Part shown: positions 6,601 through 24,038 of the stretch, in pieces | How positions within the stretch are numbered: the stretch's first letter is position 1 | Layout: each line of letters opens with the position of its first letter | From: a virus | Length of the DNA: 32,901 bases | IMG/VR virus record: IMGVR_UViG_3300032132_000001 | Location: 362,573 to 395,473 of that record | Reading direction: 5' to 3' (one strand) | The notes under the pieces: model-generated | What the model was told of the DNA's origin: nothing | The model's input: only the letters and a program-made list of their open reading frames with translations | The model's database searches: none | Made by a program: the position numbers and the translations under genes

Positions 6601-7360
6601 GGTTCTGTTCGTCGTGGATGTCCTGCAGGAGATCGGCAAAGGGTCGTAGAAACTTGACATATGGGTCATCGTCAAGTGCAACCTGTCCGTCGAAGTAGAT
6701 GGACGGAGTGTTAGAAAAAAGAGCCTGGTGGACCTCACCAGGGTGAGCATGAATCAGATCGTATCTAGCTAGAGCTTCACGAGTCGCGTCGATGCATAGG
6801 AGTTCTTGATCTGCGGTGACCAGACGTGGGTTGTACGATGCTTGCCATACGAACTTGTAACGTCCAAACGGCTTCAGATCGGCTGTGTCGATAGCGAATA
6901 TTGATAGGTCATAATAGTCGGCGTCTGGATGGTATACAATCCGATCTCTAGCTCCAGGCCCGTCTAGCATCCCTCGTTCAAGAGTGTACTCGAAGAAGTC
7001 CCCGTCTACCGCGTCGAAGAAATCCTTCTCCTCTCCGGTTTCCTGGTCGAAGAATATCTGCCCTTCAAGTGGGATAGCTGTCCTGCTCAGTTCTAGATCA
7101 GAAACGGTGACGACAAAGCGCTCAAGGTCCGGTACGAAGATGCCCTTATTCTGGAAACCAGCAACTGGCACCAACCCTGGCGCATCTTCAATGAAGTATC
7201 GGAGATCGAACACACCGGAGTTTGCTACCGGAGCGTCGTTTATCCTAACCCATGGAACTACTAGGACGATAGGGAGATTAACTGGTTGCAAGCCTGTCCT
7301 ATTATTTTGAATAGGCCATCTTACAAATTCTGGTTGGAATCGATCGGTTATTTCAGCCAT
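3608..7360 (-). CDS. large virion structural protein (1250 aa) with P2 gpI-like baseplate/tail domain; Cys-rich C-terminal region
   Basis: Segment LIPYLAYLVGWELPYFPGSTDEIRRNVLKNARRLQQLKGSRRVLVELFEIFGF matches the conserved core of phage tail protein I (P2 gpI, baseplate wedge) family; size comparable to T4 gp7-class wedge proteins. Confidence 0.55.
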   Translation of the reverse strand: MAEITDRFQPEFVRWPIQNNRTGLQPVNLPIVLVVPWVRINDAPVANSGVFDLRYFIEDAPGLVPVAGFQNKGIFVPDLERFVVTVSDLELSRTAIPLEGQIFFDQETGEEKDFFDAVDGDFFEYTLERGMLDGPGARDRIVYHPDADYYDLSIFAIDTADLKPFGRYKFVWQASYNPRLVTADQELLCIDATREALARYDLIHAHPGEVHQALFSNTPSIYFDGQVALDDDPYVKFLRPFADLLQDIHDEQNLLEGVNFVNRIPQQLIPYLAYLVGWELPYFPGSTDEIRRNVLKNARRLQQLKGSRRVLVELFEIFGFMVAIRNLWYNEDGSGFQAPNEDQITEEETCRTEPLVSDFSEDGFGQIVVPLLFRPTSDVTVDAYLVDIGSAAEAELQAISDSVDDMPESVEGVCALDLDGYLLSPALASISPPILGFSKVLIDLESGQGTDDRQVNDAPLNKVGLRYGSDNNVITVTFDHYIDFDRSRQKLFIFATYLYDKLVVPPELQNLQSNRFDIQILSVQGEEPTSQLYEFLLDFVLRLKAFHSLLRKIIILIDCCEVYNVQDFCLGGLNKQAPGTDAGELQTPPAIIPLDPTECDDDRGFSQETLDLRAKIIAGLENEHQTWKDLDGTHVVPEEQRAELEALSNVAIPRPDASPCEFTPAGQDRVISNGEKDFDHIADDRSKLCSTQGNSDDYCYKGRVQTPVEIDRCLIATELLRCKPCNLGMGHGAYYTTPIVPEQVGTFADDRCDRSSIGVSFLHTLFARVKSYQGATLHYTDRDQFRNDLVDSNEFFAIRRPSLDIQKDNLFFPGHRFVSMNKLENDFVSIYSYRPWDDIFHKCPEAIGTDKPTIEDLNPLIVEGTDGDEFLTFEDIPLEYCGNGLVPDISSLSVHAHRDFLVTHAIYSTAEPRAVSTDPVVFEQTVFTDVDAICLGSGVPPIFESANENCACPPDAIDESGSEPAGVDFANGYPAETGRYEADLADFDYPRGTSEDVDVTLLLGVPQGGGEGTEGVDLLFKCGSGILVAKDDPRAHLYAPYRLDCGCETFGCDPTNPSEEEATIDRCSVELFRLPDSSLDFNCDRVTTDLFMVLTEKFGTCSTKVDGTIPNMLCFDETAIDLEFEEKYPEQGQFKLVDDYGIIYIGMFETSGSRIDITVTTLDPRVWGEPPSGRVEGRRVFRRGIVTTCRQIIEHTDDGYIILAEGCEQRIDEFQTNFVCGDEFPQDPFAFHVDCGVCDEVEMELVEVTG

Positions 7361-7369
7361 AGCATCTTT

Positions 7370-7972
7370 ATGTATCTGAGTCGCATGAAGCCATCACAAC
7401 GTGCACGTGAGATTTTACGAGCGGAAGCACAAGCTATCCTTAATGTACCTTTGTCGGATGAGTTCGACAAAGTGGTTAACTTGATAGCTCGCATGGGCCA
7501 TAGAAAAGTACTTCTCACAGGCATGGGTAAAGCCGGGAATATCGCAAGGAAGGTCACTGGAACTCTCTGTTCCACCGGAACCCCAGCCTGCTTCCTTCAC
7601 CCTGGAGAAGCGGCTCACGGCGATCTCGGGCTTGTCTCTCCAGGCGACCTGCTGCTGGCCTTCTCGACCAGCGGGAAAACTCGCGAAGTACTGGAGACGA
7701 TCCAGCTCGCCCGCCGTCTGGGTGCTTCAACGGTGGTCGCCGTCACTTCACATCCAGACGCGCCTATCCGAAACCTAGCCGACTATGTTCTAGAGCTAGG
7801 AGAGATAGAGGAGCCGTGCTATCTTGGTCTAACGCCCACGGCAAGTACGACAGCTATGCTTGCGCTCGGAGACGCCCTCGCCCTTTGCATAATGGGCAAG
7901 AATAATATCAGCAAAGAGGACTATGGGCTTCGTCACCATGGTGGTTACCTAGGCGAAATAGCCAGAGAGTGA
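7370..7972 (+). CDS. kdsD: SIS-domain sugar-phosphate isomerase, KdsD/KpsF (arabinose-5-phosphate isomerase)-like, lacking CBS domains
   Basis: [37 protein letters not shown]...[11 protein letters not shown] is near-identical in pattern to E. coli KdsD SIS domain ([37 protein letters not shown]...ISNSGES). Start chosen at first ATG (7370; alt 7385) rather than TTG7286, which would overlap divergent gene. Confidence 0.75.
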   Translation: [200 protein letters not shown]

Positions 7973-8380: not shown

Positions 8381-9014
8381 AGCTCTTCACTGCTTTTTCT
8401 ATCTTATAGATGAACAAAGTATCCGTCTTGGCTTTACTAGATGTTGGTCTAGGGGTCTGAGGGTCGAAAATCTTGCACGACATTCGACCGCTCCTTGTGC
8501 GCCTGAACGTGTTCATCCCGATGTAGTACACATCATCAAGATAGATTGCAATTATCTTAGGCGTGGAAGTCTGGCTTGTACCTCTGCCAAGCCCGAACTT
8601 CTTCTTGCATTGTGGGTATTCACGCTTCCACCGCTCACGCCCCACGGCTCGTGTTTTATCCAGCTCCCACGTGTGGCGTCTTTGACCAATAGCGATGCCC
8701 ACCATCATCTGTGGGTCTCTCAGGTCCATGCTCCAATCGTAGACGATGCGCCTTCGCAATCTCTTGTCTTGAGAGGAGATGGACAGGATGGGCATGAAGC
8801 GTAGGAGATAATCGTCGTGTTTCTCGAACTTTATAGGGTCCACCCAATTAATCTTCCAGTTGATGTCAACCCTCCTATGGGACTGCGTGACGAAAAGCGG
8901 CTCTAGTCCGCTTGTAGTGTCAAGAGTCCTGTATACTGGAGGGCCAGATGGCTTGGTGGTCTTCATTGTAGGATCCGGAGTTTGACGTACCCCGGCACAG
9001 CCCCGAAGGCGCAA
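8361..9014 (-). CDS. hypothetical basic (K/R-rich) protein
   Basis: 217-aa ORF (track start is TTG9014; first ATG at 8966 gives MKTTKPSG...). Convergent 20-nt overlap with previous gene. No firm family. Confidence 0.4.
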   Translation of the reverse strand: MRLRGCAGVRQTPDPTMKTTKPSGPPVYRTLDTTSGLEPLFVTQSHRRVDINWKINWVDPIKFEKHDDYLLRFMPILSISSQDKRLRRRIVYDWSMDLRDPQMMVGIAIGQRRHTWELDKTRAVGRERWKREYPQCKKKFGLGRGTSQTSTPKIIAIYLDDVYYIGMNTFRRTRSGRMSCKIFDPQTPRPTSSKAKTDTLFIYKIEKAVKSFMKKRV

Positions 9015-9145
9015 CGCTCCTGAGATTTATTTTTATCACGGCTAGGCTACTAGGAGTCGCTCCTAACCAAGAGCTAAGCTAAAGATCAGATACGCGGGCC
9101 GGGGACATTTCCTCGCGTAGTTAGAATATCCAACAGGAGACCACC
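9015..9145. promoter_or_regulatory. divergent intergenic region (131 bp) with -10-like TAGAAT ~12 nt upstream of SD of gene at 9146
   Basis: Non-coding gap between divergent genes; sequence ...GTAGTTAGAATATCCAACAGGAGACCACCATG; small hairpin AGGAGtcgCTCCT. Confidence 0.3.
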
Positions 9146-9364
9146 ATGCACTGTATGAAATGCGCCAAGCACATCAAGACCTGCCACCTATGCGGCTGGT
9201 GTTATGATTGTCACACTGAGCTGAAGCATCTTTATCAGCCTTCGATCGTTCTAGATCCCAACGTGTGCTACACAGCTTCACCTGTGGAAATGCCCATTGA
9301 TTTTGGGAGTTTCACCACTGGTGGGACGGGCTTTCTTCCAGGTCTTGGTGACGCCCTGATCTAA
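9146..9364 (+). CDS. small Cys-rich (zinc-ribbon-like) protein, 72 aa
   Basis: CMKC...CHLCGWCYDCH cluster; strong SD AGGAGA 5 nt upstream. Confidence 0.55.
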   Translation: MHCMKCAKHIKTCHLCGWCYDCHTELKHLYQPSIVLDPNVCYTASPVEMPIDFGSFTTGGTGFLPGLGDALI

Positions 9365-9981
9365 TATTTCGGGGCTAACCCGTGCTTTTCAATTAGGGCG
9401 GCTTCCTGCGGCCAGAGAGTTTTGTGTCTCTCTGGGTTAATGGTGTGGAACATCACATGTTCCGCCATGAACTCCCAGACGTTCCTGGTAGAGTAAGCAG
9501 ATGGGAAGCCTTCATAATGTGCTTTTTCGTCCCATTTGTCGTGCTGGACATCTTCCAGGCCCGCTTCGTCTAGCCGATCAGAAATAACCTCGCACCACTC
9601 ATATAGCTGTTCGCTGGTGATGTTTTCAGAATTAGCGTGAGCTACCTCGTGCCAAAGCACCTGCTTCATCCCGTCCATGTCCATATGCAGAACGTAGATC
9701 ACATTGCTTTTGTATAGGCCGAGGATTCCTGGTTTCAACCTATCTGAGATCACTAACTTATCGATGTGCTTCCATGCGTTGGGGAACCGATCTAGTTGCA
9801 TCGCCAACTGTTTCTTATCGTTGGAAGAGAGTACAACATCCCCTTCTGACTCGATAGGAATGGTATTCTGGACAACGACATAATCCCATTGGCCTTCCAG
9901 TGGAATTCTGCCATATTCCACAGAAGCACATGAAACAGTTGAAATGCAAAGGATCAGTAACAGTGCGCCCCAATTTCTCAT
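9361..9981 (-). CDS. putative secreted/lipoprotein zinc metallopeptidase-like protein (HExxH)
   Basis: N-terminus MRNWGALLLILCISTVSC|A looks like signal peptide with lipobox-like Cys; VLWHEVAHAN contains HExxH zinc-binding motif. Start taken at ATG9981 (track start GTG10005). Confidence 0.5.
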   Translation of the reverse strand: MRNWGALLLILCISTVSCASVEYGRIPLEGQWDYVVVQNTIPIESEGDVVLSSNDKKQLAMQLDRFPNAWKHIDKLVISDRLKPGILGLYKSNVIYVLHMDMDGMKQVLWHEVAHANSENITSEQLYEWCEVISDRLDEAGLEDVQHDKWDEKAHYEGFPSAYSTRNVWEFMAEHVMFHTINPERHKTLWPQEAALIEKHGLAPKY

Positions 9982-10051
9982 AATATATTTTTGAGGGATA
10001 TACACTATGAGATTTAGTAGTAAATAGGAAAACCTACTTTGGAGGTGCGCT

Positions 10052-10408
10052 ATGGGTACAGGATGGTATACCGGACGGTTTCAACCGCTACACGCAGGTC
10101 ACATCAAGTGCATCAGGTATATCCTAGAAAAGGAAGACCGATGCATCGTGATTCTACGGGACACTGATCAGAGCGAGCGAAACCCTTTCGGAGTGGACGA
10201 ACGCAGAACCATGCTAGAGAAGGAGTTCTACCAAGAACTCCAGGATGGTAGAGTGATCGTCATCGACTCTCCAGACCCAGACTGCGACCTGACGGTCTAC
10301 ATCGGACGCCAGGTAGGATACGACCTCATCCAGCTGGATGCGGCTACTGAGGCCATCTCAGCTACAAATATCAGAAAGAAGCTATACGGAGAAGAAGATG
10401 GCAGTTGA
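10052..10408 (+). CDS. nucleotidyltransferase of the (H/T)xGH superfamily, archaeal/NadM-type NMN adenylyltransferase-like (short, 118 aa)
   Basis: GRFQPLHAGH (HxGH motif) , RNPFGVDER, and ISATNIRKKL (ISxTxIR motif) match M. jannaschii NMNAT pattern GRFQPFHKGH/ENPFTAGER/SGTEIRRRM; SD GGAGGTG upstream. Confidence 0.7.
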   Translation: MGTGWYTGRFQPLHAGHIKCIRYILEKEDRCIVILRDTDQSERNPFGVDERRTMLEKEFYQELQDGRVIVIDSPDPDCDLTVYIGRQVGYDLIQLDAATEAISATNIRKKLYGEEDGS

Positions 10409-10664
10409 AATCCGCAGGGCCGTGCTGGACCTAGTTAATGTCGATGCTACCGGTGGTGTGATCGACAAGAATAGTCCCGATACCAAGATCAGGACCATGT
10501 TGAACTTCACTACTGAGTTCCGCGTGTTTGGAACGGGAGGCTCAGCGTCCTCCCCGAACGCAACGGGCGTCAGCGTAGACGATTATCTGGTGGCGGAGGC
10601 TGCGGAGGATTTCCAGCTCGCCCATATGGACCAGAGCCAGATCGTCACCCAAAAGATCACATAA
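10398..10664 (+). CDS. hypothetical protein (88 aa)
   Basis: ATG10398 with GGAGAAGAAG upstream; ATGGCAGTTGA start/stop overlap with preceding gene. Confidence 0.5.
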   Translation: MAVEIRRAVLDLVNVDATGGVIDKNSPDTKIRTMLNFTTEFRVFGTGGSASSPNATGVSVDDYLVAEAAEDFQLAHMDQSQIVTQKIT

Positions 10665-10941
10665 TCTCTGCTAACCAGCTTCGCACCTCCCTCTCTTTTT
10701 CTTCGGAGAGAGGGAGGATCTGCAGAGCGTCAGGCCATTTCCGGTCCATTTTCTTCCGGACATCGATTAGCAATACTATTCTTTCTGTTTCAACATCATA
10801 CCGATAAGAGAAAGCATTCGGGTTGCTTTCAAAATCGGGGTCCACTTCCGGATGCTCTTGAAGTGGACAGATATAGATCTCTTTTACTTCGGTATTAGGA
10901 TCTTCTATTTCTTCGATTTCGCCATAGTATCCATTGGCCAT
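10657..10941 (-). CDS. hypothetical acidic protein (95 aa)
   Basis: ORF downstream of Pol X gene (stop 10959); start taken at first ATG after the Pol X stop. Confidence 0.4.
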   Translation of the reverse strand: MANGYYGEIEEIEDPNTEVKEIYICPLQEHPEVDPDFESNPNAFSYRYDVETERIVLLIDVRKKMDRKWPDALQILPLSEEKEREVRSWLAEIM

Positions 10942-10958
10942 GATGCCATGAAATTCTA

Positions 10959-11831
10959 CTATGACCTTAGGGCTGGAGCAACGTATTCCCGACCTAGAAA
11001 TTGGAATACCTCCTCTTCTTCCCGAAATCGGTGAGCTTCGCCTTCCCGGAAGAGACCGTATTCGTTTAGACACCAACCGTCCTGTTTGATAGACGCACGC
11101 AGTGTCTTGTTGAAGTCTTTGCTCCCGGTCATGTGGAGTAAGGCCGTCCCCCACTGCGAGCGATCGATTATGTTTAATTCTACGCACGCGCCGTCCGTTA
11201 CAATAGCACACTTGCGCTTCCCTTTTTCAACAATCGGCCCAAGGCTGCAGAAAGTGTCGATCGCTTCGGGGCTCTCAATGAGGATGTCTATATCCCCAAC
11301 TGTTTTGGATTCCCGGCGCAAGGAGCCGGCGCACTTCATTTCGAAAGGTAATTGATCGGCTACTTTGGTAAATATACTGTATGCATCATCCCAGCAGATT
11401 CGCTCGGTTGAAATCTGCAGTCTTGCGGATAGAGTGGGGTTATTTATCTTTCCGACTTGGATTAGCTGTAGTAGACCTGTTCTTGTTGTTACTCGGTGCT
11501 TACGGTATAGCTTCTTTGCTGTCTTTATACCTATACCCTTAACACTCATGAGATCCCGCAGATCGCCATGCCTCTTAATCTGCTGGTTTAGTTCTCTCAG
11601 CTCGCCAGTCTCTAGGATCTCTATAATCTTAGCTGAGATCTTCTTCCCAACACCCGGGATATCGGCAAGCGCGACGTCGTCGAGCGGCCGTCGAAGATCC
11701 TCAATGTTCTCTGCAGCCTTCCTATAGGTGCACTGCAGGTATTTGAGGTTTTTGAACTTACTCATTGACAGAGTAAGATACTCCGTATGGGTACGGAGGA
11801 TAGACACCACAAGCGCGTTACTCGGATCCAC
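10959..11831 (-). CDS. DNA polymerase family X (Pol beta-like) minimal polymerase, ~270-290 aa
   Basis: 8-kDa/HhH region YRKAAENIEDL...DIPGVGKKISAKIIEILETGEL; second HhH VKGIGIKTAKKL; catalytic GSLRRESKTVGDIDILI (two Asp), LLHMTGSKDFNKTLRASIKQDGWCLNEYGLF and C-terminal YVAPALRS all match Pol beta/Pol X motifs. Track start is GTG11831; ATG11765 (MSKFKN...) plausible. Confidence 0.8.
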   Translation of the reverse strand: MDPSNALVVSILRTHTEYLTLSMSKFKNLKYLQCTYRKAAENIEDLRRPLDDVALADIPGVGKKISAKIIEILETGELRELNQQIKRHGDLRDLMSVKGIGIKTAKKLYRKHRVTTRTGLLQLIQVGKINNPTLSARLQISTERICWDDAYSIFTKVADQLPFEMKCAGSLRRESKTVGDIDILIESPEAIDTFCSLGPIVEKGKRKCAIVTDGACVELNIIDRSQWGTALLHMTGSKDFNKTLRASIKQDGWCLNEYGLFREGEAHRFREEEEVFQFLGREYVAPALRS

Positions 11832-11893
11832 GTCCTTTTAGATACGGACGGACCGAACGCATGACAGTAAGTGATACAGGACAAAGATAAGTT

Positions 11894-12268
11894 ATGCCAG
11901 ACGACATCGACCAGATTGCCCACTTGATGGAAGACGACATTGACAAGATCCTGTCAGAAGATGAGGATCAAGCTCAGGATGTCCCGGTAGTCCACCAGCC
12001 AGCTGCGGCTGATGCTCCGCTCTTCCACCCCCTCCTTGAAGCTCTTCGGGGCGTAATGGAGAAAGGGGCGACACTCGGCGCTGAGATTACCGAGTATATG
12101 CAAATCGATGATCCACTATTTCTCCAGACTCTCGCGAAACAGGTCTTTGAGAGTGAGATTAGAGAAGATATCGAAGAGCTAAATGAGACTCTCAGTAGCA
12201 TTGAGTCTCGCTGGAACAACATTGTACACACTATTCACGAGTATGCTGAAGTTACTCGACCCGAATAG
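11894..12268 (+). CDS. highly acidic small protein (124 aa, ~27% D/E)
   Basis: MPDDIDQIAHLMEDDIDKILSEDEDQAQD...; divergent from Pol X gene, convergent 17-nt overlap with next gene. Confidence 0.5.
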   Translation: MPDDIDQIAHLMEDDIDKILSEDEDQAQDVPVVHQPAAADAPLFHPLLEALRGVMEKGATLGAEITEYMQIDDPLFLQTLAKQVFESEIREDIEELNETLSSIESRWNNIVHTIHEYAEVTRPE

Positions 12269-12713
12269 GTTCTTCCAGTACAAGTAGCTCATCGTCCCCG
12301 TCGTCCAACCGAGACTGGATAGTCTCGGAGATCCCCCGTCTAATATGGCGAAAATGGCTCTTAATTTGAGTGGAGAATATTTCCATTTCCACTGGCTGTT
12401 CCAGCAGGTAGTGTAGAGATATTCTATTGCGGGGAAGGAAGGAAACCTGGAAGTGCATCATATCCAGCAGGTTTCTGATCAACTTGGCGATGAAGCACTT
12501 TAGCTCTTCGTCGTACACCTTTGTGCGACAATTACGAAGAACTTCGGGTGCTGCAGTAGCTGTGACGAATCGTCCGTTTAGGATGTCGTCCGAGAAGTTC
12601 TCAAGTTCCCACTCCATCAACTTGGAGTGGTCCTGAGCGATATAATCTACGAAAAAGAAAGGATAGGGCTCAATCCTGATTGATCGGACGCTCCACAGTT
12701 CCTTTCTCTTCAT
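12252..12713 (-). CDS. hypothetical protein (153 aa)
   Basis: ORF only. Confidence 0.45.
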   Translation of the reverse strand: MKRKELWSVRSIRIEPYPFFFVDYIAQDHSKLMEWELENFSDDILNGRFVTATAAPEVLRNCRTKVYDEELKCFIAKLIRNLLDMMHFQVSFLPRNRISLHYLLEQPVEMEIFSTQIKSHFRHIRRGISETIQSRLDDGDDELLVLEEPIRVE

Positions 12714-12723
12714 ACATTATATT

Positions 12724-12993
12724 TTATTCTTCCTCGCAGCGCTCGATCCAAGTAGAGCACTTGTAATGGTATGACCATCCTCCCATCCCACCATGCATCC
12801 GTTCAAATTCCACGGTGACCACGATAGAGTCCGTGGAGCGGACGAAATCCACGGTGTCGGAGTGGCCATACTCGTCAATACGGAAGAGGGCCAGAGCTGT
12901 CTGTCTCGCTCTTTCGTACGCCTGCTCGGTTACGCGGGTCGGATCCGAAATGGAGATGGGGAACGTTTCGACGTCGGTGACTTTCTTGCTCAT
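12724..12993 (-). CDS. hypothetical protein (89 aa)
   Basis: ORF; ATGA-type coupling with upstream gene. Confidence 0.4.
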   Translation of the reverse strand: MSKKVTDVETFPISISDPTRVTEQAYERARQTALALFRIDEYGHSDTVDFVRSTDSIVVTVEFERMHGGMGGWSYHYKCSTWIERCEEE

Positions 12994-13448
12994 ACGAGAT
13001 TACACCTTATGCACGCTTCCATGAGCATCTTATCTGCCTCAGTATACTTCCGCAAGCGCATATTCGTTCCGCGATAGTACGCACGGCCACTGCGCTCTTT
13101 CGGAGCTTTGTGATCTACGATCCGGTTGTAGGTCAGATCACCGTCCCAGATCATATAGGCAGACTTTCGAGAAATGTTCCTTCCGTTACCGGAAAGGACC
13201 GCCCCTCTGGTGAAATAGACCTGGAAAAGGAAGAATGGATCATAATCTGGTTTACATATATCATCCTGAGTTGCGGGATAATAGATAAGTCTACCTTTCA
13301 CACCTCTTTCCTGTATCGCTAGACCCATCCAGTGGAGTTCATGGAAAGAGATGGGCCACGACCATGTCTTGTCAGACCGGTGGTGGCCCCACTTTTTAGT
13401 TGGTACAGGTTCCATGGGTACAAAGTCGCTTGGTCTTTTTCTTGTCAT
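12990..13448 (-). CDS. hypothetical protein (152 aa), basic N-terminus, CxxC at C-terminus
   Basis: ORF only. Confidence 0.45.
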   Translation of the reverse strand: MTRKRPSDFVPMEPVPTKKWGHHRSDKTWSWPISFHELHWMGLAIQERGVKGRLIYYPATQDDICKPDYDPFFLFQVYFTRGAVLSGNGRNISRKSAYMIWDGDLTYNRIVDHKAPKERSGRAYYRGTNMRLRKYTEADKMLMEACIRCNLV

Positions 13449-13460
13449 TACATGGCAGGA

Positions 13461-13877
13461 TCACCATGTCCGTCCGATAGTGAGATGATACTTGGTCTTT
13501 GGTGTCTCATCGAGACCAAGCTCTATTCTTATCTCAGCAAGTCGGTCAGAGAAACAGTCAACGAAATAGTAGCTATCAGGTCGGTCCCAGCCGGTCGTAT
13601 CCCCGGCCTGGCGGATCAAATACTTGTATTCGAAGGTTATGATCTCGCCGTCGTGCTTCTTCCACGCTTCAAGATTAGGCGGTTCGATCCCGCGCACAAC
13701 CGAGAGGTGGGCGCCCCACGAGGGTTTGTGGAGCTTTACTTCTTGGTGGATCAAGATTTGGTGGCGGAAATAACGGCAGAGATCCTCACAGGTCTCCAGC
13801 ACAAGCCACCATGGATTATTGGATTTTAGGCCCGGTCGTTCCGGGTTATAGACGAGTTTTCCGCTGCACCGTAACAT
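13461..13877 (-). CDS. 2H phosphoesterase superfamily protein (LigT/CPDase/Acb1-like), 138 aa
   Basis: Two H-x-[ST]-x motifs flanked by hydrophobics: AHLSVVRG (~aa 57) and YHLTIGR (~aa 131), ~74 aa apart, the hallmark of 2H phosphoesterases. Confidence 0.6.
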   Translation of the reverse strand: MLRCSGKLVYNPERPGLKSNNPWWLVLETCEDLCRYFRHQILIHQEVKLHKPSWGAHLSVVRGIEPPNLEAWKKHDGEIITFEYKYLIRQAGDTTGWDRPDSYYFVDCFSDRLAEIRIELGLDETPKTKYHLTIGRTW

Positions 13878-13878
13878 G

Positions 13879-14163
13879 TCATAGTACTTTGTTTAGTAGA
13901 TCCCTGTAAATAGCGTCGTCTTCGATGTGACTGTACTTCAGATCTTTCCCAAGTTCATCCGATTCAGTCCGTCCAACTAGGACAAAAAAGTCGGACTCGA
14001 CGTAATAAATGACACACTCATCGTCCCCCGACTCTTCGGGAACCGGGGTGACGAACATGATAAACTCGATGATCACTCCAGGCTGAGCCCTCTCTTCTGG
14101 CATCAGCCACCTATCCTCCTCATCGATGTTCCCAAACCAGGCCATAGCCTGCAGTTTGGTCAT
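13879..14163 (-). CDS. hypothetical acidic protein (94 aa)
   Basis: ORF; start ATG overlaps stop of upstream small ORF (ATGA). Confidence 0.4.
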   Translation of the reverse strand: MTKLQAMAWFGNIDEEDRWLMPEERAQPGVIIEFIMFVTPVPEESGDDECVIYYVESDFFVLVGRTESDELGKDLKYSHIEDDAIYRDLLNKVL

Positions 14164-14333
14164 TTTATACCTTTAGAGAAGGAGAGGAGGAGCATCTTGG
14201 GAGCTAGGTCGGTAAGTACTGTGCAAGATCTCAGAGTCCACTTATCCTTGCCTAGATCTCTCAAGAGCGTCTCGTATGGTTCCAGCCCTCTCCACTCATG
14301 GAGTACTGCTTTATAATCGATTGCTCTAGACAT
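14160..14333 (-). CDS. small hypothetical protein (57 aa), not in ORF track (<60 aa)
   Basis: ATG 14333-14331 lies 1 nt after TAA of upstream gene; its TGA overlaps ATG of downstream gene (ATGA); fills otherwise 170-nt gap in a tightly packed operon. Translation MSRAIDYKAVLHEWRGLEPYETLLRDLGKDKWTLRSCTVLTDLAPKMLLLSFSKGIK. Confidence 0.4.
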   Translation of the reverse strand: MSRAIDYKAVLHEWRGLEPYETLLRDLGKDKWTLRSCTVLTDLAPKMLLLSFSKGIK

Positions 14334-14334
14334 C

Positions 14335-14757
14335 TTATCCCTTTAGGTATTCTAATGCTCGCCTGTAGTTTCCTTCTGTCATACAGACGACTGGGTCGAT
14401 TTCTACGAAATTGTCCATTTTGTAAAGAGGTAGGTCATCTAGAATAGTATACTTCACGTCTGGATGAAGCTCTAGCCATTCGCAGATATCGGCCTCCCTA
14501 CGTGCGTTGGGAGATAGTTCATATGAAGTCCATTCTTCATGTAGAAGAATCTCTAGATCTATCCCGTTTTTCTGGAACAGATCAATTACTACATCTTTCC
14601 CGCAACCGACCCATGTACTAGAGACGACAACCTTAGCTCCCGATTCCTCGATCAGGCAAAGAAGAGCCGACTTTGCTTCTGGGACGAAGATCTGGCTGCT
14701 TGGATCAGCAGCAGAAATGAGTACTCCGTCGATGTCGAGGAATATTACTTTGTCCAT
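14335..14757 (-). CDS. HAD-superfamily phosphatase (140 aa)
   Basis: Motif I IFLDIDGVL (DxDGV), motif II VVVSSTW, motif IV ILDDL. Start at ATG14757 (TGATG overlap with upstream gene); track ORF starts further upstream. Confidence 0.7.
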   Translation of the reverse strand: MDKVIFLDIDGVLISAADPSSQIFVPEAKSALLCLIEESGAKVVVSSTWVGCGKDVVIDLFQKNGIDLEILLHEEWTSYELSPNARREADICEWLELHPDVKYTILDDLPLYKMDNFVEIDPVVCMTEGNYRRALEYLKG

Positions 14758-15065
14758 CAGATTCCAAAGGTCCAAACCATAGCAGTGGCCCAAGCAAGAG
14801 TGCCAGCCACTATGAAAATGGCGATGATCAATAGCCCGTAAGCGAACAACAACCCCAAGCAGGAGTGCAGGGTCATAGCGAGCGCGAACAACATGCCACG
14901 CCATCCATCGTTCTCAATGGACTTGAGCGACATTTGAAGTAAGCCGAATTCATCGTCTGGGCCTTCTCCCAAAAGCACAGTGCGCCAAGCATCTATCGCT
15001 TTTGGGAGAAGTATGATGTAGCTCACGGCAACCATGAAGACTGCCCAGTCAGCCCAGGTGGTCAC
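14757..15065 (-). CDS. small integral membrane protein (3 predicted TM)
   Basis: Hydrophobic segments AVFMVAVSYIILL, LFALAMTLHSCLGLLFAYGLLIIAIFIVAGTLAWATAMVW. Confidence 0.5.
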   Translation of the reverse strand: MTTWADWAVFMVAVSYIILLPKAIDAWRTVLLGEGPDDEFGLLQMSLKSIENDGWRGMLFALAMTLHSCLGLLFAYGLLIIAIFIVAGTLAWATAMVWTFGI

Positions 15066-15454
15066 TACAGGTTACCTTCCACGTGGTACCTGCACAATGA
15101 TCTAGGACCAGTAGTGGCTTTGTGGATGGTCTCTTCGCAAGAGAGGCACTCCACCTTATATCGTCTCCTCCCTGTATCGCAACCGATCAGAGAAGTGGGG
15201 GTCACCTTGAGTTGATGGCCCTCGATGAGGAACTCTACCATCTCAGGCGGGCCGGCATCGGAATAAATGCCAGTCACATCCGGCCATGGGAAATCGTATG
15301 TGGGTTCCGTCATCTCTTTGACTTTTCTGACCCAAGCTTCGCAGACCGGATGAAACGACTCATCTGGCATGGATACCTGGTCAAGAAGCCCGTCCACCAT
15401 CTTCGCACCCTCTTTCAGAAGTTGAAGAGCTTCATCTAACTCGCTTTGCGGCAT
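15065..15454 (-). CDS. hypothetical protein with C-terminal Cys/His cluster (possible zinc-binding)
   Basis: Start at M17 (TAATG overlap with clpS stop); C-terminal C..C..H..C..C..H. Confidence 0.45.
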   Translation of the reverse strand: MPQSELDEALQLLKEGAKMVDGLLDQVSMPDESFHPVCEAWVRKVKEMTEPTYDFPWPDVTGIYSDAGPPEMVEFLIEGHQLKVTPTSLIGCDTGRRRYKVECLSCEETIHKATTGPRSLCRYHVEGNL

Positions 15455-15786
15455 TATCCGTCTACCTTCTCGATTGATGCGCCCATCGAGCCCTTGCTCC
15501 ACGCGAGACGCCGGTCAGCGCCCCAGGCATGGATCTGGTCCCGCTTCAGTTCGCAGGTTTCTAGCTGTCCACTGTATACCACGGCTTTCCCGTCGTTGTC
15601 CAGAGTCTCCGCCATGCCGTATGCCTTGTCCTCGGTGTGGCCGAAGAGAACGCGCAGCATGTTGATTACGTAGTAGTATGAGTGGTCCTGGTCATCGTAT
15701 AGTACGATAATCCATGGTTTTTGTGTCAGAGTGTCAGTATCAGTGCCGACGTCTTCCACTGTATCAGTCATCGTTGCCATCGTCAT
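15454..15786 (-). CDS. clpS: ClpS-like ATP-dependent Clp protease adaptor
   Basis: KPWIIVLYDDQDHSYYYVINMLRVLFGHTEDKAYGMAETLDNDGKAVVYSGQLETCELK aligns position-by-position with E. coli ClpS core ([29 protein letters not shown]...[21 protein letters not shown]); SD GAGGTGA upstream. Confidence 0.75.
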   Translation of the reverse strand: MTMATMTDTVEDVGTDTDTLTQKPWIIVLYDDQDHSYYYVINMLRVLFGHTEDKAYGMAETLDNDGKAVVYSGQLETCELKRDQIHAWGADRRLAWSKGSMGASIEKVDG

Positions 15787-16531
15787 TAGTCACCTCTATA
15801 TAAGGGCTATCGTGTTGCGTGGAGAAGAAGTAGCAAGTTCCAATTAGGATCTTCATAAGGAAACGGTCGAATTGATCCAAAATCCCAAGCGCCCGGTGGT
15901 GCATTTCATTCACTTCCAGTGTGTCTAGCACATCGGTGATAAACCTACCCCACCAATCTGGAGTTCTTGTGATGTTTAGCACACCGGGCAATCCTGCTAC
16001 CCAACTATTGATTATTGCTTCTTTATCTTTATCGGTCCTGATCTTTTTCATGAACTGGACGCAGTAAGCAACCACGTTCGGTGGCGCATTTTGCGACGCT
16101 TTATCATATACATCTGGATCAAGATGAGTTGTCAGCTCGGCCTTCTCTAGATCGAGGAGTCCGAGATATCTTCTTACGTCTCGTTCAGTGATCTCATCTA
16201 CAAATCCGCCAGGACACAGAGTGAGAACAGTGTTCTCCTTGTCCTCGATTTCGAACTTGCTGAAGAGCCATTCTGTGGAGACGTCAAAGGGGCAGAGGAT
16301 CATTGGAATTTCCAAGATCCTCCTTGCCCCTGATAAGCCTATAGTCTGTACATAGTCGTCCCTAGTGAGCACTACCGAATGGTACTTCTGCTCATTATAC
16401 TCGTAGGACGTCTCGAAGACTGGGGTTACATCGGTGATCTGCTCTAGGAACAGTTCGTTCATGCGAGCAAATTCTTGTTGAAGCTCTTCGGTGGTCTTAG
16501 CTTCTACCGAGTTCTCTTGTTTGCCATCCAT
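15764..16531 (-). CDS. hypothetical protein (~255 aa) downstream of helicase
   Basis: ORF; start taken at first ATG after helicase stop region. Confidence 0.45.
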   Translation of the reverse strand: MDGKQENSVEAKTTEELQQEFARMNELFLEQITDVTPVFETSYEYNEQKYHSVVLTRDDYVQTIGLSGARRILEIPMILCPFDVSTEWLFSKFEIEDKENTVLTLCPGGFVDEITERDVRRYLGLLDLEKAELTTHLDPDVYDKASQNAPPNVVAYCVQFMKKIRTDKDKEAIINSWVAGLPGVLNITRTPDWWGRFITDVLDTLEVNEMHHRALGILDQFDRFLMKILIGTCYFFSTQHDSPYIEVTNDDGNDD

Positions 16532-17468
16532 CTCTTGATCTACTCGACACGTATCTCTTATTCGGGGTAACAACCTGACGCATCAGCACTTTCGCACGAG
16601 AAGCGTAAGGCAGGGCCTCCACGAGGTTACAGTTTAATTTACCCTTGTAAGTGCGCATCGCACGCCCAGCCATCTGGGTCAGCATGCTCTTGCTCCGGGT
16701 GTTCCGGGCCACGACCACGCTCTTCGTGCACGGGAGGTCGGTTCCTTCCGTCAGAATCAGGCACGAGAACAGCACGTCCACCTTCCCGTCTTCGAAATCC
16801 TGGAGCTGTCGCTCCCGGTTCGATTTGCCGGTGACAATGGTGGTTCTCATCTGAAGCTTCTCAGAGAATTCTGCTCCTGCAGCCTTGGTCGGCACGAACA
16901 CAATGGTCGGACCGAGCATGCTCTTGTGAGCATTCATCCAAGACGGTAGCACTTCAAGGATATCACCCTTACACCGGACAGAATATACCCATGGTGGTGC
17001 CAGGTATCCTTCTGCAACGAGCTGGTCGATGGAGATCCCAACGACCTGCGCATCAAAGTAGAGGGTTGCGTTGTCTTCGCGTTTGGGCGTAGCGGTCAGA
17101 CCCAAGAACCGGTCGAAGCGAAGCCTATCCTGTAGATCCCGGATGGTGCTGCAAGACTCGTGGTGAGCCTCATCTAGCACCACCAGGTCGAATTTGCCCC
17201 AGGTCGGGTCCGGTCGCTTGAAGACAGAATGGAATACTACGTCATTCCGGCCAAGTTTCTGGAATGACTCATTGGCCTGTTGGAGGAGTCGTCTACGGTG
17301 GGCTAGCCACAGTACCTTGCGGTAGGGCCTGCAAAGCCCTGCCGCAGCAGTGTAAGTCTTACCTCCACCGCACGGCAGGACCGCAAGCACCCGCGCAGCA
17401 CCAGATTGGAAGATTTCGTAGACGGCATCCGTCATATCTTCCTGGTACCAGCGGAGTGATGTGAACAT
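16497..17468 (-). CDS. superfamily-2 DEAH-box DNA/RNA helicase (323 aa)
   Basis: Motif I LPCGGGKT, motif II VVLDEAHHE, motif III LTATP, motif VI QMAGRAMR; N-terminal LRWYQ typical of type III-res/Rad25-like helicases. Confidence 0.8.
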   Translation of the reverse strand: MFTSLRWYQEDMTDAVYEIFQSGAARVLAVLPCGGGKTYTAAAGLCRPYRKVLWLAHRRRLLQQANESFQKLGRNDVVFHSVFKRPDPTWGKFDLVVLDEAHHESCSTIRDLQDRLRFDRFLGLTATPKREDNATLYFDAQVVGISIDQLVAEGYLAPPWVYSVRCKGDILEVLPSWMNAHKSMLGPTIVFVPTKAAGAEFSEKLQMRTTIVTGKSNRERQLQDFEDGKVDVLFSCLILTEGTDLPCTKSVVVARNTRSKSMLTQMAGRAMRTYKGKLNCNLVEALPYASRAKVLMRQVVTPNKRYVSSRSRDGWQTRELGRS

Positions 17469-17966
17469 TTAGTCCTCTTCAGCTAGATCCTCATACACCT
17501 CATCGAGGATTTCGGCGAACTGGTATAGTTCGTGATGGATCGCTTTGCGCGGACTCACGTCGCTCCAGCGCTCCAACGCCCAGAAGAAGGGGCGCAGCAG
17601 GATCGGCGTGCGGCAGATCCAGTCTGCGTACTTCCGCAGTGCGTTGGCGGTCAGGCTCACGTCGAGGATCTCCTCAGCGGTGTCCTCACCATAGAACTGG
17701 ACCAATCCGTCGATCAGATTGATTACCGAGATCTCGGCAAGCTGCTGCTTGCCTACGATACCATCCGTCATGAGCTTGACAGCCGCAGGCGCGACCACAT
17801 TACTCATCAATTCTGCAAGGGCCAGGTTCTCATCCTGGTCCAGAAAAGGTGCCGGCTTGCTGCTCTGGTGATGCTTGAACAGCGTGGTTGCGCTGTGTTG
17901 GAACAGCGTGGTGGCAACCGGACGTCGAATCAGGGCGTCTGCCAAGTTCTTTGGTGTGATTCTCAT
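17469..17966 (-). CDS. hypothetical protein (165 aa); weak resemblance to all-alpha MazG-like NTP pyrophosphatase
   Basis: ATGA overlap with purA/purZ-like stop and TAA-ATG abutment with helicase: operonic. Segment AEEILDVSLTANALRKY loosely resembles MazG E-x-x-D helix (EELGDVLFxL). Weak. Confidence 0.4.
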   Translation of the reverse strand: MRITPKNLADALIRRPVATTLFQHSATTLFKHHQSSKPAPFLDQDENLALAELMSNVVAPAAVKLMTDGIVGKQQLAEISVINLIDGLVQFYGEDTAEEILDVSLTANALRKYADWICRTPILLRPFFWALERWSDVSPRKAIHHELYQFAEILDEVYEDLAEED

Positions 17967-19108
17967 GTAAGTTCCATTACGTGGTGCATACTGTCGGGAC
18001 CAGTCCCGACCACAGTCACCGGGATTCCGGCGTCATCTTCCACCTTCTTGATGAAATCAGTCACCTTGGTCGATAACCTGCCGGGATCGTTGGTGCCATA
18101 GCAATCCCAATCGAGGTAGTTTGCGAAGTTGAGCGCGATCTTAGTCGCTCCCGTCACCATCACGGCGTATTGGAGCTGCGTGGCGGAGTAGGAGAACACG
18201 CGTCGCAGACGTTTGGTCACCGTGGTGAGTTCGCCCTTCGCGACGAGCGGCGGCGCTCCTGCTTCCCGCGTCACCTGTTCCCAGGTGATCTCATTCTGGT
18301 GAGGGTAGCAATCACCGGAGTATCCGACCGTCTTCCCGTCTTCCATTACGTTACCCACGCGGATGGGGAAGGGACGGATTACCATGTAGATGTCGCCAGC
18401 CCACTGGTGCGGTACACCCATGTCGGCCATCATCTGCATCGGAGTGCACTCTCGCGAGGTGCACTGTGGGTAGTGTGACCCGTGGTTGACTCCGAGGCTG
18501 AATCCCTGGCTCCCTTCATGCAACCAGGTGTACTCATTTTTCATCATGAGTATAACCTGTTCACTGAAGAGTGGGTAGACATCACCCTGAGCATCTTGAT
18601 TGGTCACTACACCCCAATCCAACATGTCACGGGCAAGCTTTACTTCAGCACCACGCATCAGCTTCTCAGCCTGTACCGCACCAGATCCCTGCATCGTACT
18701 AGCGATGTGCTTGGTATCGGTGCGCTCCATCTTCGCGTGATCTTCGGTGACGATCATCGCTCTCGGATGGATGTGTACTTTCTTACTTGTGGGGAGTTCG
18801 TCCGAGATGTAGTCACACTCTCGGAGTTCCTGCATTAGGCGTTCCACGGTGAACCCGGCACCAGCGCCGATGTAACACCTCATATCGTAGCCTAGCTTGT
18901 TGAGAATACAGCTGGCAGGAATCACCTTAGAAATGAACTTATATTCTTTGCCATTGACGTTACAGATGGCGGTGTGCCCTGCATTTGGTAGATTGGTCGT
19001 AGAAGCACACTTTACTCCATACTTCCATGCCAAGAATGTGGCGATGTTCCCTTTGCCAGTGCTACCCCACTGACCGTCAATTACTAGATTGAATTTACCT
19101 GCTTGCAT
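17963..19108 (-). CDS. purA: adenylosuccinate synthetase family protein (PurA homologue) with variant P-loop GSTGKGN; PurZ-like (2-aminoadenine pathway) candidate
   Basis: [21 protein letters not shown] vs E. coli [46 protein letters not shown] vs [31 protein letters not shown] vs ATTGRRRRTGW; ISTGPD-like VVGTGPD. Start at ATG19108 with perfect SD AAGGAG 6 nt upstream (track start 19150). Confidence 0.8.
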   Translation of the reverse strand: [381 protein letters not shown]

Positions 19109-19287
19109 GAACGGCTCCTTGTGTAGGTCCGTTTCAAATACTGCTGTCATAGTGGACCGGGCAGGATTTGCACCTTGCGTCTCTGTCTCCAGCGCTTTCC
19201 TTCTCGATAACCATAGGTGGGTTATAAGTTCCCCATCGTTCCAGGGGCTCCCACCCTTAGGGTCGCTAAGCTACCGGCCCAAATATA

Positions 19288-19326
19288 GTGATGGCCCGAT
19301 GGGAGTAATCCGCACCGGGCCATCAC
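19288..19326 (-). terminator. stem-loop downstream of cspA-like gene (11-bp perfect stem GTGATGGCCCG/CGGGCCATCAC)
   Basis: Inverted repeat 12 nt after cspA stop, followed on minus strand by TATATTT; candidate intrinsic terminator. Confidence 0.4.
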
Positions 19327-19337
19327 TTGGAAGACTG

Positions 19338-19538
19338 TTAGATCTTGCGAACGTTCTCTGCGGCTGGACCCTTCGGTCCTTCAACCACGTCGAACTCGAC
19401 TTGATCTTCTTCGTTCAGGGACTTGAAGCCTTCCATTTGGATGGCTTTGTGGTGGACGAACAGGTCCTTACCACCGTCATCGGGCTTGATGAAACCATAG
19501 CCCTTCTCATCGTTAAACCACTTCACTGTTCCACGCAC
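19338..19538 (-). CDS. cspA: cold-shock protein, CspA family (cold-shock domain)
   Basis: [15 protein letters not shown]...[11 protein letters not shown]...[27 protein letters not shown] is canonical CSD with RNP1/RNP2 motifs; GTG start with SD AGGAG 8 nt upstream. Confidence 0.9.
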
Positions 19539-19558
19539 TTCTGTCTACTCCTAAAGCA

Positions 19559-19614
19559 CCGGCTGCCGGGATGGCAGCCGGTATTGTACGAACAACGACT
19601 AGTTGTCGTTGTTC
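19559..19614 (-). terminator. two tandem perfect hairpins (10-bp GAACAACGAC/GTCGTTGTTC and 9-bp CCGGCTGCC/GGCAGCCGG) between upstream gene stop and cspA SD
   Basis: First hairpin overlaps stop codon of gene 19599-20207; second ends 6 nt before cspA SD; terminator and/or 5'-UTR structure. Confidence 0.4.
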
Positions 19615-20207
19615 TCCTTGATGTAGGACGCGAGGTCCTTGTTTTTGTGGGTCAGCTCGTACCCCTTCTTCTCCAGCTGCTTCCGCTTGCGCGTCAGCGA
19701 CTTGAAGTCCTTGATGGGGTAGGACGTCCCCTCGGCGCCCTTCTTGCCGAGCGAGCCATTGTAGGTGTTGAAGGTCAGGAAGGACTGACCATCCGCCAGG
19801 ATGACGCACACGGCCTTGGCGATGAAGTCGGCGTGGTCGAAGTCGTTCTCCTTCTGCCACACTTCACCCTGCTTCTGCAGTTCCTTGAAGTTGACCTTTG
19901 CCGGCTCGACGTCCTTCTTGGGAGTCTTCTTCTTCTTCGGGGTTGCGGTCGCTTTTCCAGACATTTTCTCGTTCTTTCGTAGGGTTTCTTGGAATGCGGG
20001 ATTGGGAATTTCGTTGCCGTCCACGACGGAAGCGATGACACGGGAGATGTGCACTCGGTGCGCCTTACCAGATTCAGATCCGGTAAGCTCCACTACCGAT
20101 TTGCTTAGCGCCTCGATAGTGTAGTTCTCTTCGTCACGCTTGCCATCGCTATCGGAAACGACGATCTCACTCCCAACGTCAAGCTCAAACTTGATTTTAG
20201 TGGCCAT
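19599..20207 (-). CDS. hypothetical protein with central lysine-rich linker (PKKKKTPKK) (202 aa)
   Basis: ORF; possible nucleic-acid binding by composition only. Confidence 0.5.
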   Translation of the reverse strand: MATKIKFELDVGSEIVVSDSDGKRDEENYTIEALSKSVVELTGSESGKAHRVHISRVIASVVDGNEIPNPAFQETLRKNEKMSGKATATPKKKKTPKKDVEPAKVNFKELQKQGEVWQKENDFDHADFIAKAVCVILADGQSFLTFNTYNGSLGKKGAEGTSYPIKDFKSLTRKRKQLEKKGYELTHKNKDLASYIKENNDN

Positions 20208-20216
20208 CGCTCTCTC

Positions 20217-23799: not shown

Positions 23800-24038
23800 T
23801 ATTCTCCCCCTATAAATACAATCCCTTCATTGCATTCTTCATTATCACAGTCCATGCCGCCATCGAAGCCATGGCATTCTGGACAGTACTCATAGTCCTC
23901 ATGATGAACAGCAGTGTATAGCACTAGTTGTCCATCATTATCTGTTTCGACTTGGTAGCCGTATTTGTCTGCAATGTCGTATACTTGCTTACGAGCTGCA
24001 GCTTCCATCTTGTCTGCTTCTTCTTTAGATTGGCTCAT
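23799..24038 (-). CDS. hypothetical protein with C-terminal Cys cluster (CPECHGFDGGMDCDNEEC)
   Basis: ORF, coupled to neighbours. Confidence 0.45.
   Translation of the reverse strand: MSQSKEEADKMEAAARKQVYDIADKYGYQVETDNDGQLVLYTAVHHEDYEYCPECHGFDGGMDCDNEECNEGIVFIGGE

Follow-up and report, generated by a model that had tools for sequence, protein, structure and literature searches.

A family X polymerase gene in an uncultured jumbo phage

The stretch of DNA analysed here (the window) comprises 32,901 nucleotides of IMG/VR virus record IMGVR_UViG_3300032132_000001, positions 362,573 to 395,473, and all positions below are counted from its first letter. At 10959-11831, on the minus strand, lies a gene for a family X (Pol beta-like) DNA polymerase, hereafter Pol X, identified from its open reading frame (ORF), Pfam profiles, Protein Data Bank (PDB) matches and a structural model. 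The ORF fills this interval exactly, with a GTG start, 290 uninterrupted codons and a TAG stop. An earlier note on this DNA, made from its letters without database searches, had put the product at about 270 aa; the actual length is 290 aa. The GTG at 11831 is the true start, because the 22 residues ahead of the internal Met23 show conservation at the protein level in a syntenic phage-like contig (L002) and in a collected homologue (P0081), and are modelled as a confident helix. In L002 this extension reads MDPNNALVASLLRTHCDYLTLS, with a proportion of synonymous differences (pS) of 0.47 and of non-synonymous differences (pN) of 0.135 over the stretch; in P0081 it aligns with the N-terminus. For the same reason, the 270-aa gene call of the homologue P0002 is truncated. 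Comparison of Pol X with its counterpart in L002 gave a pN of 0.18 and a pS of 0.78 (synonymous sites saturated), and the codon for E218, a residue of importance below, is GAA in both. The ORF is real and under strong purifying selection.

A protein identical to Pol X (P0001) is encoded on a contig of 397,419 bp, and the source is an uncultured jumbo phage with a genome of ~400 kb. Also encoded in the window are a baseplate protein of 1250 aa (Tail_P2_I) and numerous small ORFans. A megablast search of positions 9000-16000 against 50,697 phage records gave zero matches, as did a tblastn search of the phage records with the baseplate protein, and the phage is therefore without a cultured relative. 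Consensus scans for promoters and terminators, a tRNA search and Rfam returned nothing informative for the window.

Domain architecture and fold

The profile search proposed in the earlier note returned Pfam matches to HHH_8 (residues 4-78, 50.7 bits), HHH_5 (residues 92-111, 32.4 bits), DNA_pol_B_palm (residues 163-192, 26.0 bits against a cut-off of 25) and DNA_pol_B_thumb (residues 230-289, 68.3 bits), all of which pass their cut-offs. Both helix-hairpin-helix (HhH) motifs that had been reported from the letters are indeed present, IPGVGKKISAKI (HhH1) and VKGIGIKTAKKL (HhH2), with the glycines of their GxG patterns (G60/G62 and G99/G101) conserved. Among PDB sequences searched with phmmer, the best match was Thermus PolX (ttPolX) at 3e-25, and Pol lambda and Pol beta were also matched. 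An AlphaFold2 (AF2) model built with 73 homologues reached a mean predicted local distance difference test (pLDDT) score of 96.3 and a predicted template modelling (pTM) score of 0.86. Foldseek aligned this model over its full length to DNA complexes of Pol beta, Pol lambda and ttPolX (E ~1e-18 to 1e-20), with template modelling (TM) scores of 0.69-0.79 to Pol beta and lambda, and of 0.78-0.79 to the gapped-DNA complexes of Pol beta.

Four subdomains can be delimited along the minus strand. The 8-kDa (lyase) domain, placed by HHH_8, the model and the residue map, spans residues 1-88 (11568-11831), contains HhH1 and is built from helices at residues 3-22, 29-44, 63-75 and 79-88 of the model. 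The fingers (D) subdomain follows at residues ~89-145 (11397-11567), with HhH2 and its glycines G99 and G101 as well as R144, and is defined by HHH_5, the model helices and the residue map. Alignments, codons and model strands (180-185 and 215-221) place a compact palm at residues ~146-223 (11163-11396), and the thumb (N) subdomain, recognised from its Pfam match and the residue map, occupies residues 224-290 (10959-11162). The palm is short in that D182 and E218 are 36 residues apart, compared with a median of 43 in 228 homologues and 64 in Pol beta. No match to a PHP domain (PF02811) was found in Pol X; the protein stops at the thumb, and the next ORF encodes 93 aa of unknown function. Pol X is thus a PHP-less family X DNA polymerase with a compact but complete Pol beta-like core of four subdomains. 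Pfam, PDB, the model and Foldseek agree on the assignment to a phage-borne, PHP-less Pol X made in the earlier note, although its description as minimal does not fit a protein in which only the palm is short.

The family X fold is shared with template-independent terminal transferases of the TdT or Pol mu type, and an activity of this kind was therefore considered. In the AF2 model, however, the beta3-beta4 hairpins are tight (residues 200-221) and lack a Loop1, an arrangement that would fit template dependence, as the palm hairpins leave no space for such a loop. No BRCT domain was detected in the protein with Pfam, Foldseek placed Pol beta, Pol lambda and ttPolX as the closest structures, and the residues that check the template, N241 and R245, are kept. 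That Pol X is a terminal transferase is extremely unlikely.

Catalytic and substrate-contact residues

Functional residues were mapped in a 229-sequence alignment that included Pol beta, the reference for which was verified to match PDB 1bpx_A at every one of its 335 residues. The triphosphate-binding motif of the palm, G169-S170-x-R172-R173, is present, and D180 (11292-11294) and D182 (11286-11288) correspond to Pol beta D190 and D192. The columns of G169, S170, R172, R173, D180 and D182 are invariant or nearly so across 228 sequences. The third metal ligand, D256 in Pol beta, is a glutamate, Glu218, encoded by GAA at 11178-11180. It lies on a strand that reads C216-V-E218-L-N220 where Pol beta has R-I-D-I-R, so that C216 and N220 take the places of Pol beta R254 and R258. 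Glu218 was seen in a pairwise alignment with ttPolX (against D243) and in MAFFT alignments of 23, 73 and 228 sequences. The claim that all three catalytic Asp residues are present is accordingly right for D180 and D182 and wrong for the third. A careful alignment, proposed in the earlier note as a test of Asp conservation, returns an ambiguous answer and no refutation, as the third carboxylate is retained and is invariant in its clade.

Other functional residues of Pol beta, among them those that contact primer and template or check the minor groove, have a counterpart. In the 8-kDa domain, K68 (codon 11628-11630) is the equivalent of the Schiff-base lysine K72, with Y36 and K64 matching Y39 and K68 of Pol beta. 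Further along, R144 corresponds to R149, S170 to S180, R173 to R183 and K207 to K234. In the thumb, N241 and R245 are the equivalents of N279 and R283, and N256-E257-Y258 of N294-E295-Y296. The Tyr271-Phe272 pair of Pol beta is occupied by H233-M234. A His at the Tyr271 position is also found in 20 of 218 Asp-type homologues, and ttPolX, a ternary complex of which has been crystallised with gapped DNA, has an aliphatic residue at the Phe272 position (Tyr-Leu) and Gln at the Arg254 position.

A lineage of Pol X with a glutamate third ligand

An exhaustive HMMER search of 1.84 billion representative sequences (E<=1e-3) recovered 6682 Pol X-like proteins, of which no more than two, P0002 (71% identity) and P0081 (39%), are close relatives. 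In 228 collected sequences the third ligand was Asp in 214, Glu in 10, Gln in three and Asn in one; of the 218 homologues without Glu, 214 thus have Asp. The sequences with Glu are the nearest relatives of the query (P0002, P0081, P0082, P0083, P0087, P0103, P0152, P0194 and P0196), and one more (P0229) was recovered later with a profile of the clade. The Glu/His changes are not random decay, as Glu is common to ten further sequences at 28-71% identity and His to all but one of these. Within nine clade sequences covering the same range of identity, Glu218 and His233 are invariant, as are G169, R172, R173, D180, D182, K207, T235, G236, N241, R245 and N256. In eight of the nine the Phe272 position holds Met, Leu or Asn, and in eight of the nine Glu stands at the position of Pol beta K230. 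A rough neighbour-joining tree, drawn without support values, placed the Glu variants in two neighbouring groups that are not strictly monophyletic and, judged from the sequences, the change may have had one or two origins. One member, P0196, is a metagenomic protein of 927 aa in which the Glu-type Pol X core is embedded at residues 346-646.

Genomic context could be examined for six members of the Glu clade, all of which lie on phage-like contigs with dense, small ORFans on the same strand (L002-L005 and L049). The last of these, a 69 kb phage contig that carries P0229, encodes at 17323-20915 a class II aminoacyl-tRNA synthetase, a Thg1-family 3′-5′ polymerase, a dCMP deaminase-like protein and an RNA ligase, all less than 10 kb from its Pol X.

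As the earlier note had stated, Pol X is a rarity among phages: only 25 of the 50,697 phage records gave a tblastn match (E<=1e-3), and none of the PHROG families matches the window protein. No Glu was found at the third ligand in the Pol X genes of cultured phages. Scans of IMG/VR with the single protein and with a three-sequence profile recovered no close relative, only two matches at 24% identity. A metagenome scan yielded 37 Pol X loci, all of the Asp type, and none of them carried a homologue of the NMNAT-like, 2H, HAD, ClpS or PurZ genes of the window described below. Literature searches yielded no account of a Pol X in which the third ligand is naturally Glu, and the Asp-Asp-Glu/His-aliphatic subgroup appears to be undescribed in the searchable literature.

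Two of the genes in cultured phages deserve mention in their own right. Rhizobium phage RHph_TM30 (MN988521.1; locus L046, 3917-4873) encodes an annotated ‘DNA polymerase family X protein’ in which T-E-I-E-I replaces the G-D-x-D motif and no clear third carboxylate can be seen; from its sequence it is probably not an active polymerase. Acinetobacter phage Ab1-TPeters (PP763253.1; locus L047, 3944-4675) encodes a 243-aa ‘hypothetical protein’ that is an unannotated, shortened relative of Pol X, with the motifs RDVDL, DIKM and LLHSTGS and with Asp as third ligand. The gene belongs to the replication region and follows the phage DNA polymerase gene at a distance of ~3.7 kb downstream.

Probable activity and role in repair

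On balance, the gene probably encodes a functional, template-directed polymerase of the Pol beta/lambda type, without PHP domain and with a role in short-patch repair of the phage DNA. The likeliest state of the protein, and one for which we see a good chance, is an active enzyme with a compensated active site. Preserved catalysis would fit the nine clade sequences, which keep their catalytic and substrate-contacting residues invariant at 28-71% identity. Activity is further favoured because the carboxylate is fixed and not drifting, because nucleotide-binding and template-checking residues remain invariant in relatives of 28-39% identity, because the gene is under purifying selection relative to L002, and because changes of the H233 and M234 type have precedents in Asp-type homologues and in ttPolX.

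Several observations weigh against this interpretation. The match to the palm profile scarcely clears its cut-off (26 versus 25 bits). Three lysines of the 8-kDa domain are replaced relative to Pol beta (K35 by L32, K60 by L55 and K84 by E80), and the lyase lysine itself varies within the clade, being Ser in P0081 and Ala in P0194. The 33 kb window yielded no gene for an AP (apurinic/apyrimidinic) endonuclease, a glycosylase or a complete ligase. Human Pol beta with the D256E substitution is ~1000-fold less active, and Arg254 is important because it positions Asp256 (PMC5499815); this is the strongest point against full activity of Pol X. As R254 and R258 are replaced in addition to D256, the catalytic rate of Pol X is unpredictable.

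The loss of some three orders of magnitude in the Pol beta mutant, the part played there by R254, and the change of the whole strand from R-I-D-I-R to C-V-E-L-N would all be expected if Pol X were a crippled or inactive polymerase, kept for dRP (5′-deoxyribose phosphate) or AP lyase activity, for binding gaps or nicks, or as a scaffold for repair proteins. Degenerate Pol X genes do exist in phages, RHph_TM30 with its E-I-E for D-x-D being an example. However, Glu is present in 11 of 11 clade sequences with no sign of drift, and the DxD motif, S170, R173, N241 and R245 are likewise invariant although they would serve no purpose in a protein that acts as a lyase only. Moreover, Glu is the third carboxylate in other enzymes with the nucleotidyltransferase fold. 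We therefore consider an inactive polymerase unlikely.

For the active enzyme, the most likely function by analogy is the filling of short gaps combined with dRP-lyase activity in phage DNA repair. A course of events can be proposed from the residue map and from the characterised Pol X of Yersinia phage YerA41 (see below). The 8-kDa domain would use HhH1 together with K64 and K68 to bind a short gap at its 5′-phosphate or 5′-dRP end, and K68 would remove the 5′-dRP by beta-elimination, both steps being suggested by conserved residues. Two divalent metals would be held by D180, D182 and E218, again judging from conservation, and templated insertion of one or a few nucleotides would follow, during which N241 and R245 would check the minor groove. 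The resulting nick would then pass to a DNA ligase encoded elsewhere; if this is NAD+-dependent, the NMNAT-like enzyme encoded next to Pol X may provide the NAD+ (nicotinamide adenine dinucleotide). In this manner the phage could mend abasic sites, nicks and gaps in its ~400 kb genome by a short-patch repair of its own.

Gene neighbourhood

Beyond the 3′ end of Pol X, at 10052-10408 on the plus strand, a gene encodes a 118-aa NMNAT-like nucleotidyltransferase, identified by Pfam CTP_transf_like and linked to Pol X by synteny only. It has HxGH and ISxTxxR motifs, matches PDB 1ej2 at 1e-7 and is closest to the archaeal type of NMN (nicotinamide mononucleotide) adenylyltransferase, of which it is a truncated form; the NCBIfam NMNAT subfamily is matched at 47 bits, below its cut-off. 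Homologues stand beside Pol X in L002 (3526-3870, 65-68% identity) and in L003 (1122-1451, 48% identity), and in the latter they are still directly adjacent although the two Pol X proteins are only 39% identical. The two genes are convergent in the window and in L003, and in tandem in L002. This is the sole neighbour that recurs across divergent contigs; the HAD, 2H and ligase genes do not. Three contigs do not separate shared descent from functional coupling, and a functional link between the pair is what we infer. Ab1-TPeters was considered as a second case of Pol X paired with a small nucleotidyltransferase and was rejected, as the transferases share only the HxGH motif.

On the other side, divergent from Pol X, a plus-strand gene (11894-12268) encodes 124 aa of unknown function without a Pfam or PHROG match. 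Its position and orientation are kept in L002, where a 123-aa gene on the opposite strand upstream of Pol X is 63% identical. Further upstream, and on the same strand as Pol X, are genes for a 2H-like protein (13461-13877), a HAD_SAK_2 phosphatase (14335-14757, 63 bits) and a homologue of the ClpS adaptor (15454-15786; PF02617, 49 bits), as well as a superfamily-2 helicase gene. The 2H-like protein has two H-x-S/T motifs (AHLSV and YHLTI) and matches phrog_12204, of unknown function, at 2.6e-36; it might be a cyclic-nucleotide or RNA-end phosphodiesterase. Synteny with L002 extends over ClpS, the 2H-like gene (70% identity), two unknown genes, the 124-aa gene on the opposite strand, Pol X, the small nucleotidyltransferase and a 214-aa gene. 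ClpS is kept there at 75-392 with 74-77% identity, and its presence suggests that the phage manipulates N-degron proteolysis by the host ClpAP.

The earlier note had linked Pol X to the HAD phosphatase, the 2H enzyme and a ligase fragment as a module for gap filling or end healing, possibly acting on modified DNA. Gap-filling repair is indeed the best reading of Pol X; little speaks for the module. The ‘ligase fragment’ is a stand-alone protein of 277 aa (26324-27157, minus strand) that covers LigA positions 387-651, with Zn finger, HhH and BRCT regions. It lies 14.5 kb from Pol X and is without catalytic domains, and no adenylation or OB domain was found in the ORFs adjoining it or upstream of it; it may serve in DNA binding or as a scaffold, or be what is left of a split ligase. 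L002 has no HAD gene, the match of the 2H-like protein to PF22547 (2H-SAK) falls short of the Pfam cut-off (21.6 versus 27 bits), and in Pfam the HAD_SAK_2 and 2H-SAK families are both named for the repair of RNA and not of DNA. Neither the 2H nor the HAD protein had a usable match in the PDB.

In line with the module idea of the earlier note, Pol X could instead form a cassette for end healing or RNA repair together with the HAD and 2H enzymes, in which it would add nucleotides to healed ends. Both genes share the strand of Pol X and are found 1.6-2.9 kb upstream of it, synteny with L002 includes the 2H gene, and in L049 Thg1 and RNA ligase genes stand 9-10 kb from the Pol X of that clade member. 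However, five to six unrelated small genes and a gene on the opposite strand intervene between the HAD/2H genes and Pol X in the window, the HAD gene does not recur in the syntenic relative, the 2H match is below threshold and without a PDB relative, and the 8-kDa and HhH architecture of Pol X is one that binds DNA gaps. Nor does the window hold a ‘Swiss Army Knife’ RNA-repair cassette: HAD_SAK_2 is present, 2H-SAK is below cut-off, no catalytic domain of a ligase was found in the window, and the set is not conserved in L002. Membership of such a cassette is thus very doubtful.

Other genes of the window include those for a thymidylate kinase (119-820), a dUTPase with an N-terminal extension of ~40 aa (864-1427) and a SIS-domain protein resembling sugar-phosphate isomerases (7286-7972), all on the plus strand, and for a BD-FAE/alpha-beta hydrolase (24035-24811, minus strand). 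At 31428-32495 on the minus strand is a gene for a phage ion channel of the ligand-gated type, similar to the glutamate receptor GluR0 of bacteria, in which a potassium-channel pore (Ion_trans_2, 61 bits; Lig_chan) interrupts a periplasmic-binding-protein domain (SBP_bac_3, 101 bits).

A PurZ-like gene and probable DNA modification

Upstream of Pol X, 6 kb away and on the same strand (17963-19150, minus), lies a gene for a PurZ-like succino-aminodeoxyadenylate synthase. The protein is 40% identical to PurZ of phiVC8, contains the P-loop GQWGSTGKG and matches PHROG 1211; its best NCBIfam match is PurZ, at 238 bits, which is below the cut-off of 300. No MazZ, DatZ or DpoZ was recognised in the window, and the ORFs of 165 and 202 aa that flank the gene had no matches. 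The phage genome probably carries a modified base. One account describes hosts as using DNA glycosylases against modified phage DNA (PMC11078745). Such an attack would yield abasic sites to be mended, which could provide a rationale for Pol X.

The survey of co-occurrence with purZ-like genes suggested in the earlier note did not extend the pairing beyond this window. No PurZ homologue was seen on the related Pol X loci, most of which are short, and 60 PurZ-positive records sampled from the 187 of cultured phages did not overlap with the 25 Pol X-positive records. The largest genome among the sampled PurZ-positive phages is 168 kb, with most at 40-84 kb, and a jumbo phage with PurZ would be unusual.

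With a PurZ-like gene 6 kb away, Pol X might be tuned to non-standard nucleotides, serving repair or gap filling of 2-aminoadenine (Z) DNA, or using ribonucleotides or Mn2+, by means of its Glu, His and Met residues and perhaps Cys216. H233 and M234 stand at the Pol beta Y271/F272 positions, beside the nascent base pair and the sugar, and the Pol X of YerA41 likewise serves a phage with modified DNA. Several points argue against this. The contigs of the Glu clade (L002-L005 and L049) show no PurZ in view, the cultured phages sampled do not combine the two genes, and the 2-amino group of Z would lie in the minor groove like that of G, so that a special pocket is not obviously needed. We regard this specialisation as improbable.

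A broader proposal would make the Asp-Asp-Glu/His-aliphatic Pol X a phage-specific lineage in which a remodelled site shifts metal or substrate preference (Mn2+, ribonucleotides or dZTP), and which in this PurZ-encoding jumbo phage forms, with the NMNAT-like enzyme and an NAD+-dependent ligase, a self-contained pathway that mends the abasic sites left when host glycosylases attack modified DNA. The remodelling would comprise Glu218, the loss of Arg254 and Arg258, Cys216 on the same strand face as Glu218, and His233/Met234 at the gate to the sugar and minor groove. Taken together, remodelling included, we give this proposal a slim chance.

Comparison with known family X polymerases

The closest parallels in cultured phages are the Pol X proteins of Yersinia phage YerA41 and Cobetia phage Carin-5, which are similarly phage-encoded, PHP-less and ~290-300 aa long, and come from large phages with modified DNA. 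The YerA41 enzyme (gp158) fills 1-nt gaps and cleaves AP and tetrahydrofuran (THF) sites, co-elutes with the phage PolA, and completes repair with the phage NAD+-dependent ligase (bioRxiv 10.1101/2025.03.26.645540); the DNA of YerA41 is hypermodified (PMC9023294). Identity between the YerA41 and window proteins is ~29%, over the C-terminal 126 residues only. Unlike the window protein, both YerA41 and Carin-5 have the canonical Asp third ligand and Tyr-Phe (EGDVRI and LYFTG), and their 8-kDa region lacks the GxG pattern of HhH1. Base excision repair of the YerA41 type has only just been shown in phages, and the window gene extends the rare phage Pol X to an uncultured jumbo phage of ~400 kb that carries a PurZ-like gene.

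With the cores of human Pol beta and lambda, Pol X shares the four subdomains (TM 0.78-0.79), the lyase lysine, the GS-x-RR and DxD motifs and the equivalents of K234, N279, R283 and N294-E295-Y296. It differs from Pol beta at D256 (Glu), R254 (Cys), R258 (Asn), Y271 (His) and F272 (Met), as well as at K35, K60 and K84; its palm is ~28 residues shorter than in these human enzymes and identity is 22-26%. The short palm is a feature in common with ttPolX, which has Gln for Arg254 and Tyr-Leu for Tyr-Phe. However, ttPolX has a C-terminal PHP domain and Asp243 as third ligand, and Pol X has neither; the NCBIfam PolX equivalog scores 92 bits on the window protein against a cut-off of 426. African swine fever virus (ASFV) Pol X (O174L, 174 aa) is also a viral repair enzyme and is what is usually meant by a ‘minimal Pol X’. 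It consists of palm and thumb only, to which the window protein adds the 8-kDa and fingers subdomains, and O174L aligned to 138 columns of the model, all in the C-terminal half (TMq 0.30).

Lastly, the engineered Pol beta mutant D256E (PDB 4JWM) has the same Asp to Glu change at the third metal ligand. The mutant is ~1000-fold impaired, with R254 displaced, whereas the natural clade has become fixed for the very substitution that cripples human Pol beta, with R254, Y271 and usually F272 replaced as well. That these replacements accompany a fixed Glu suggests compensation, without proving it. If the enzyme is active, it shows a family X active site rebuilt around a longer carboxylate, which would help to understand two-metal catalysis and to engineer small polymerases; if it is inactive, it exemplifies a polymerase fold kept for lyase or DNA-binding roles. 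Phage Pol X proteins are already known, are rare and include one characterised enzyme; to these the window gene adds the Asp-Asp-Glu variant.

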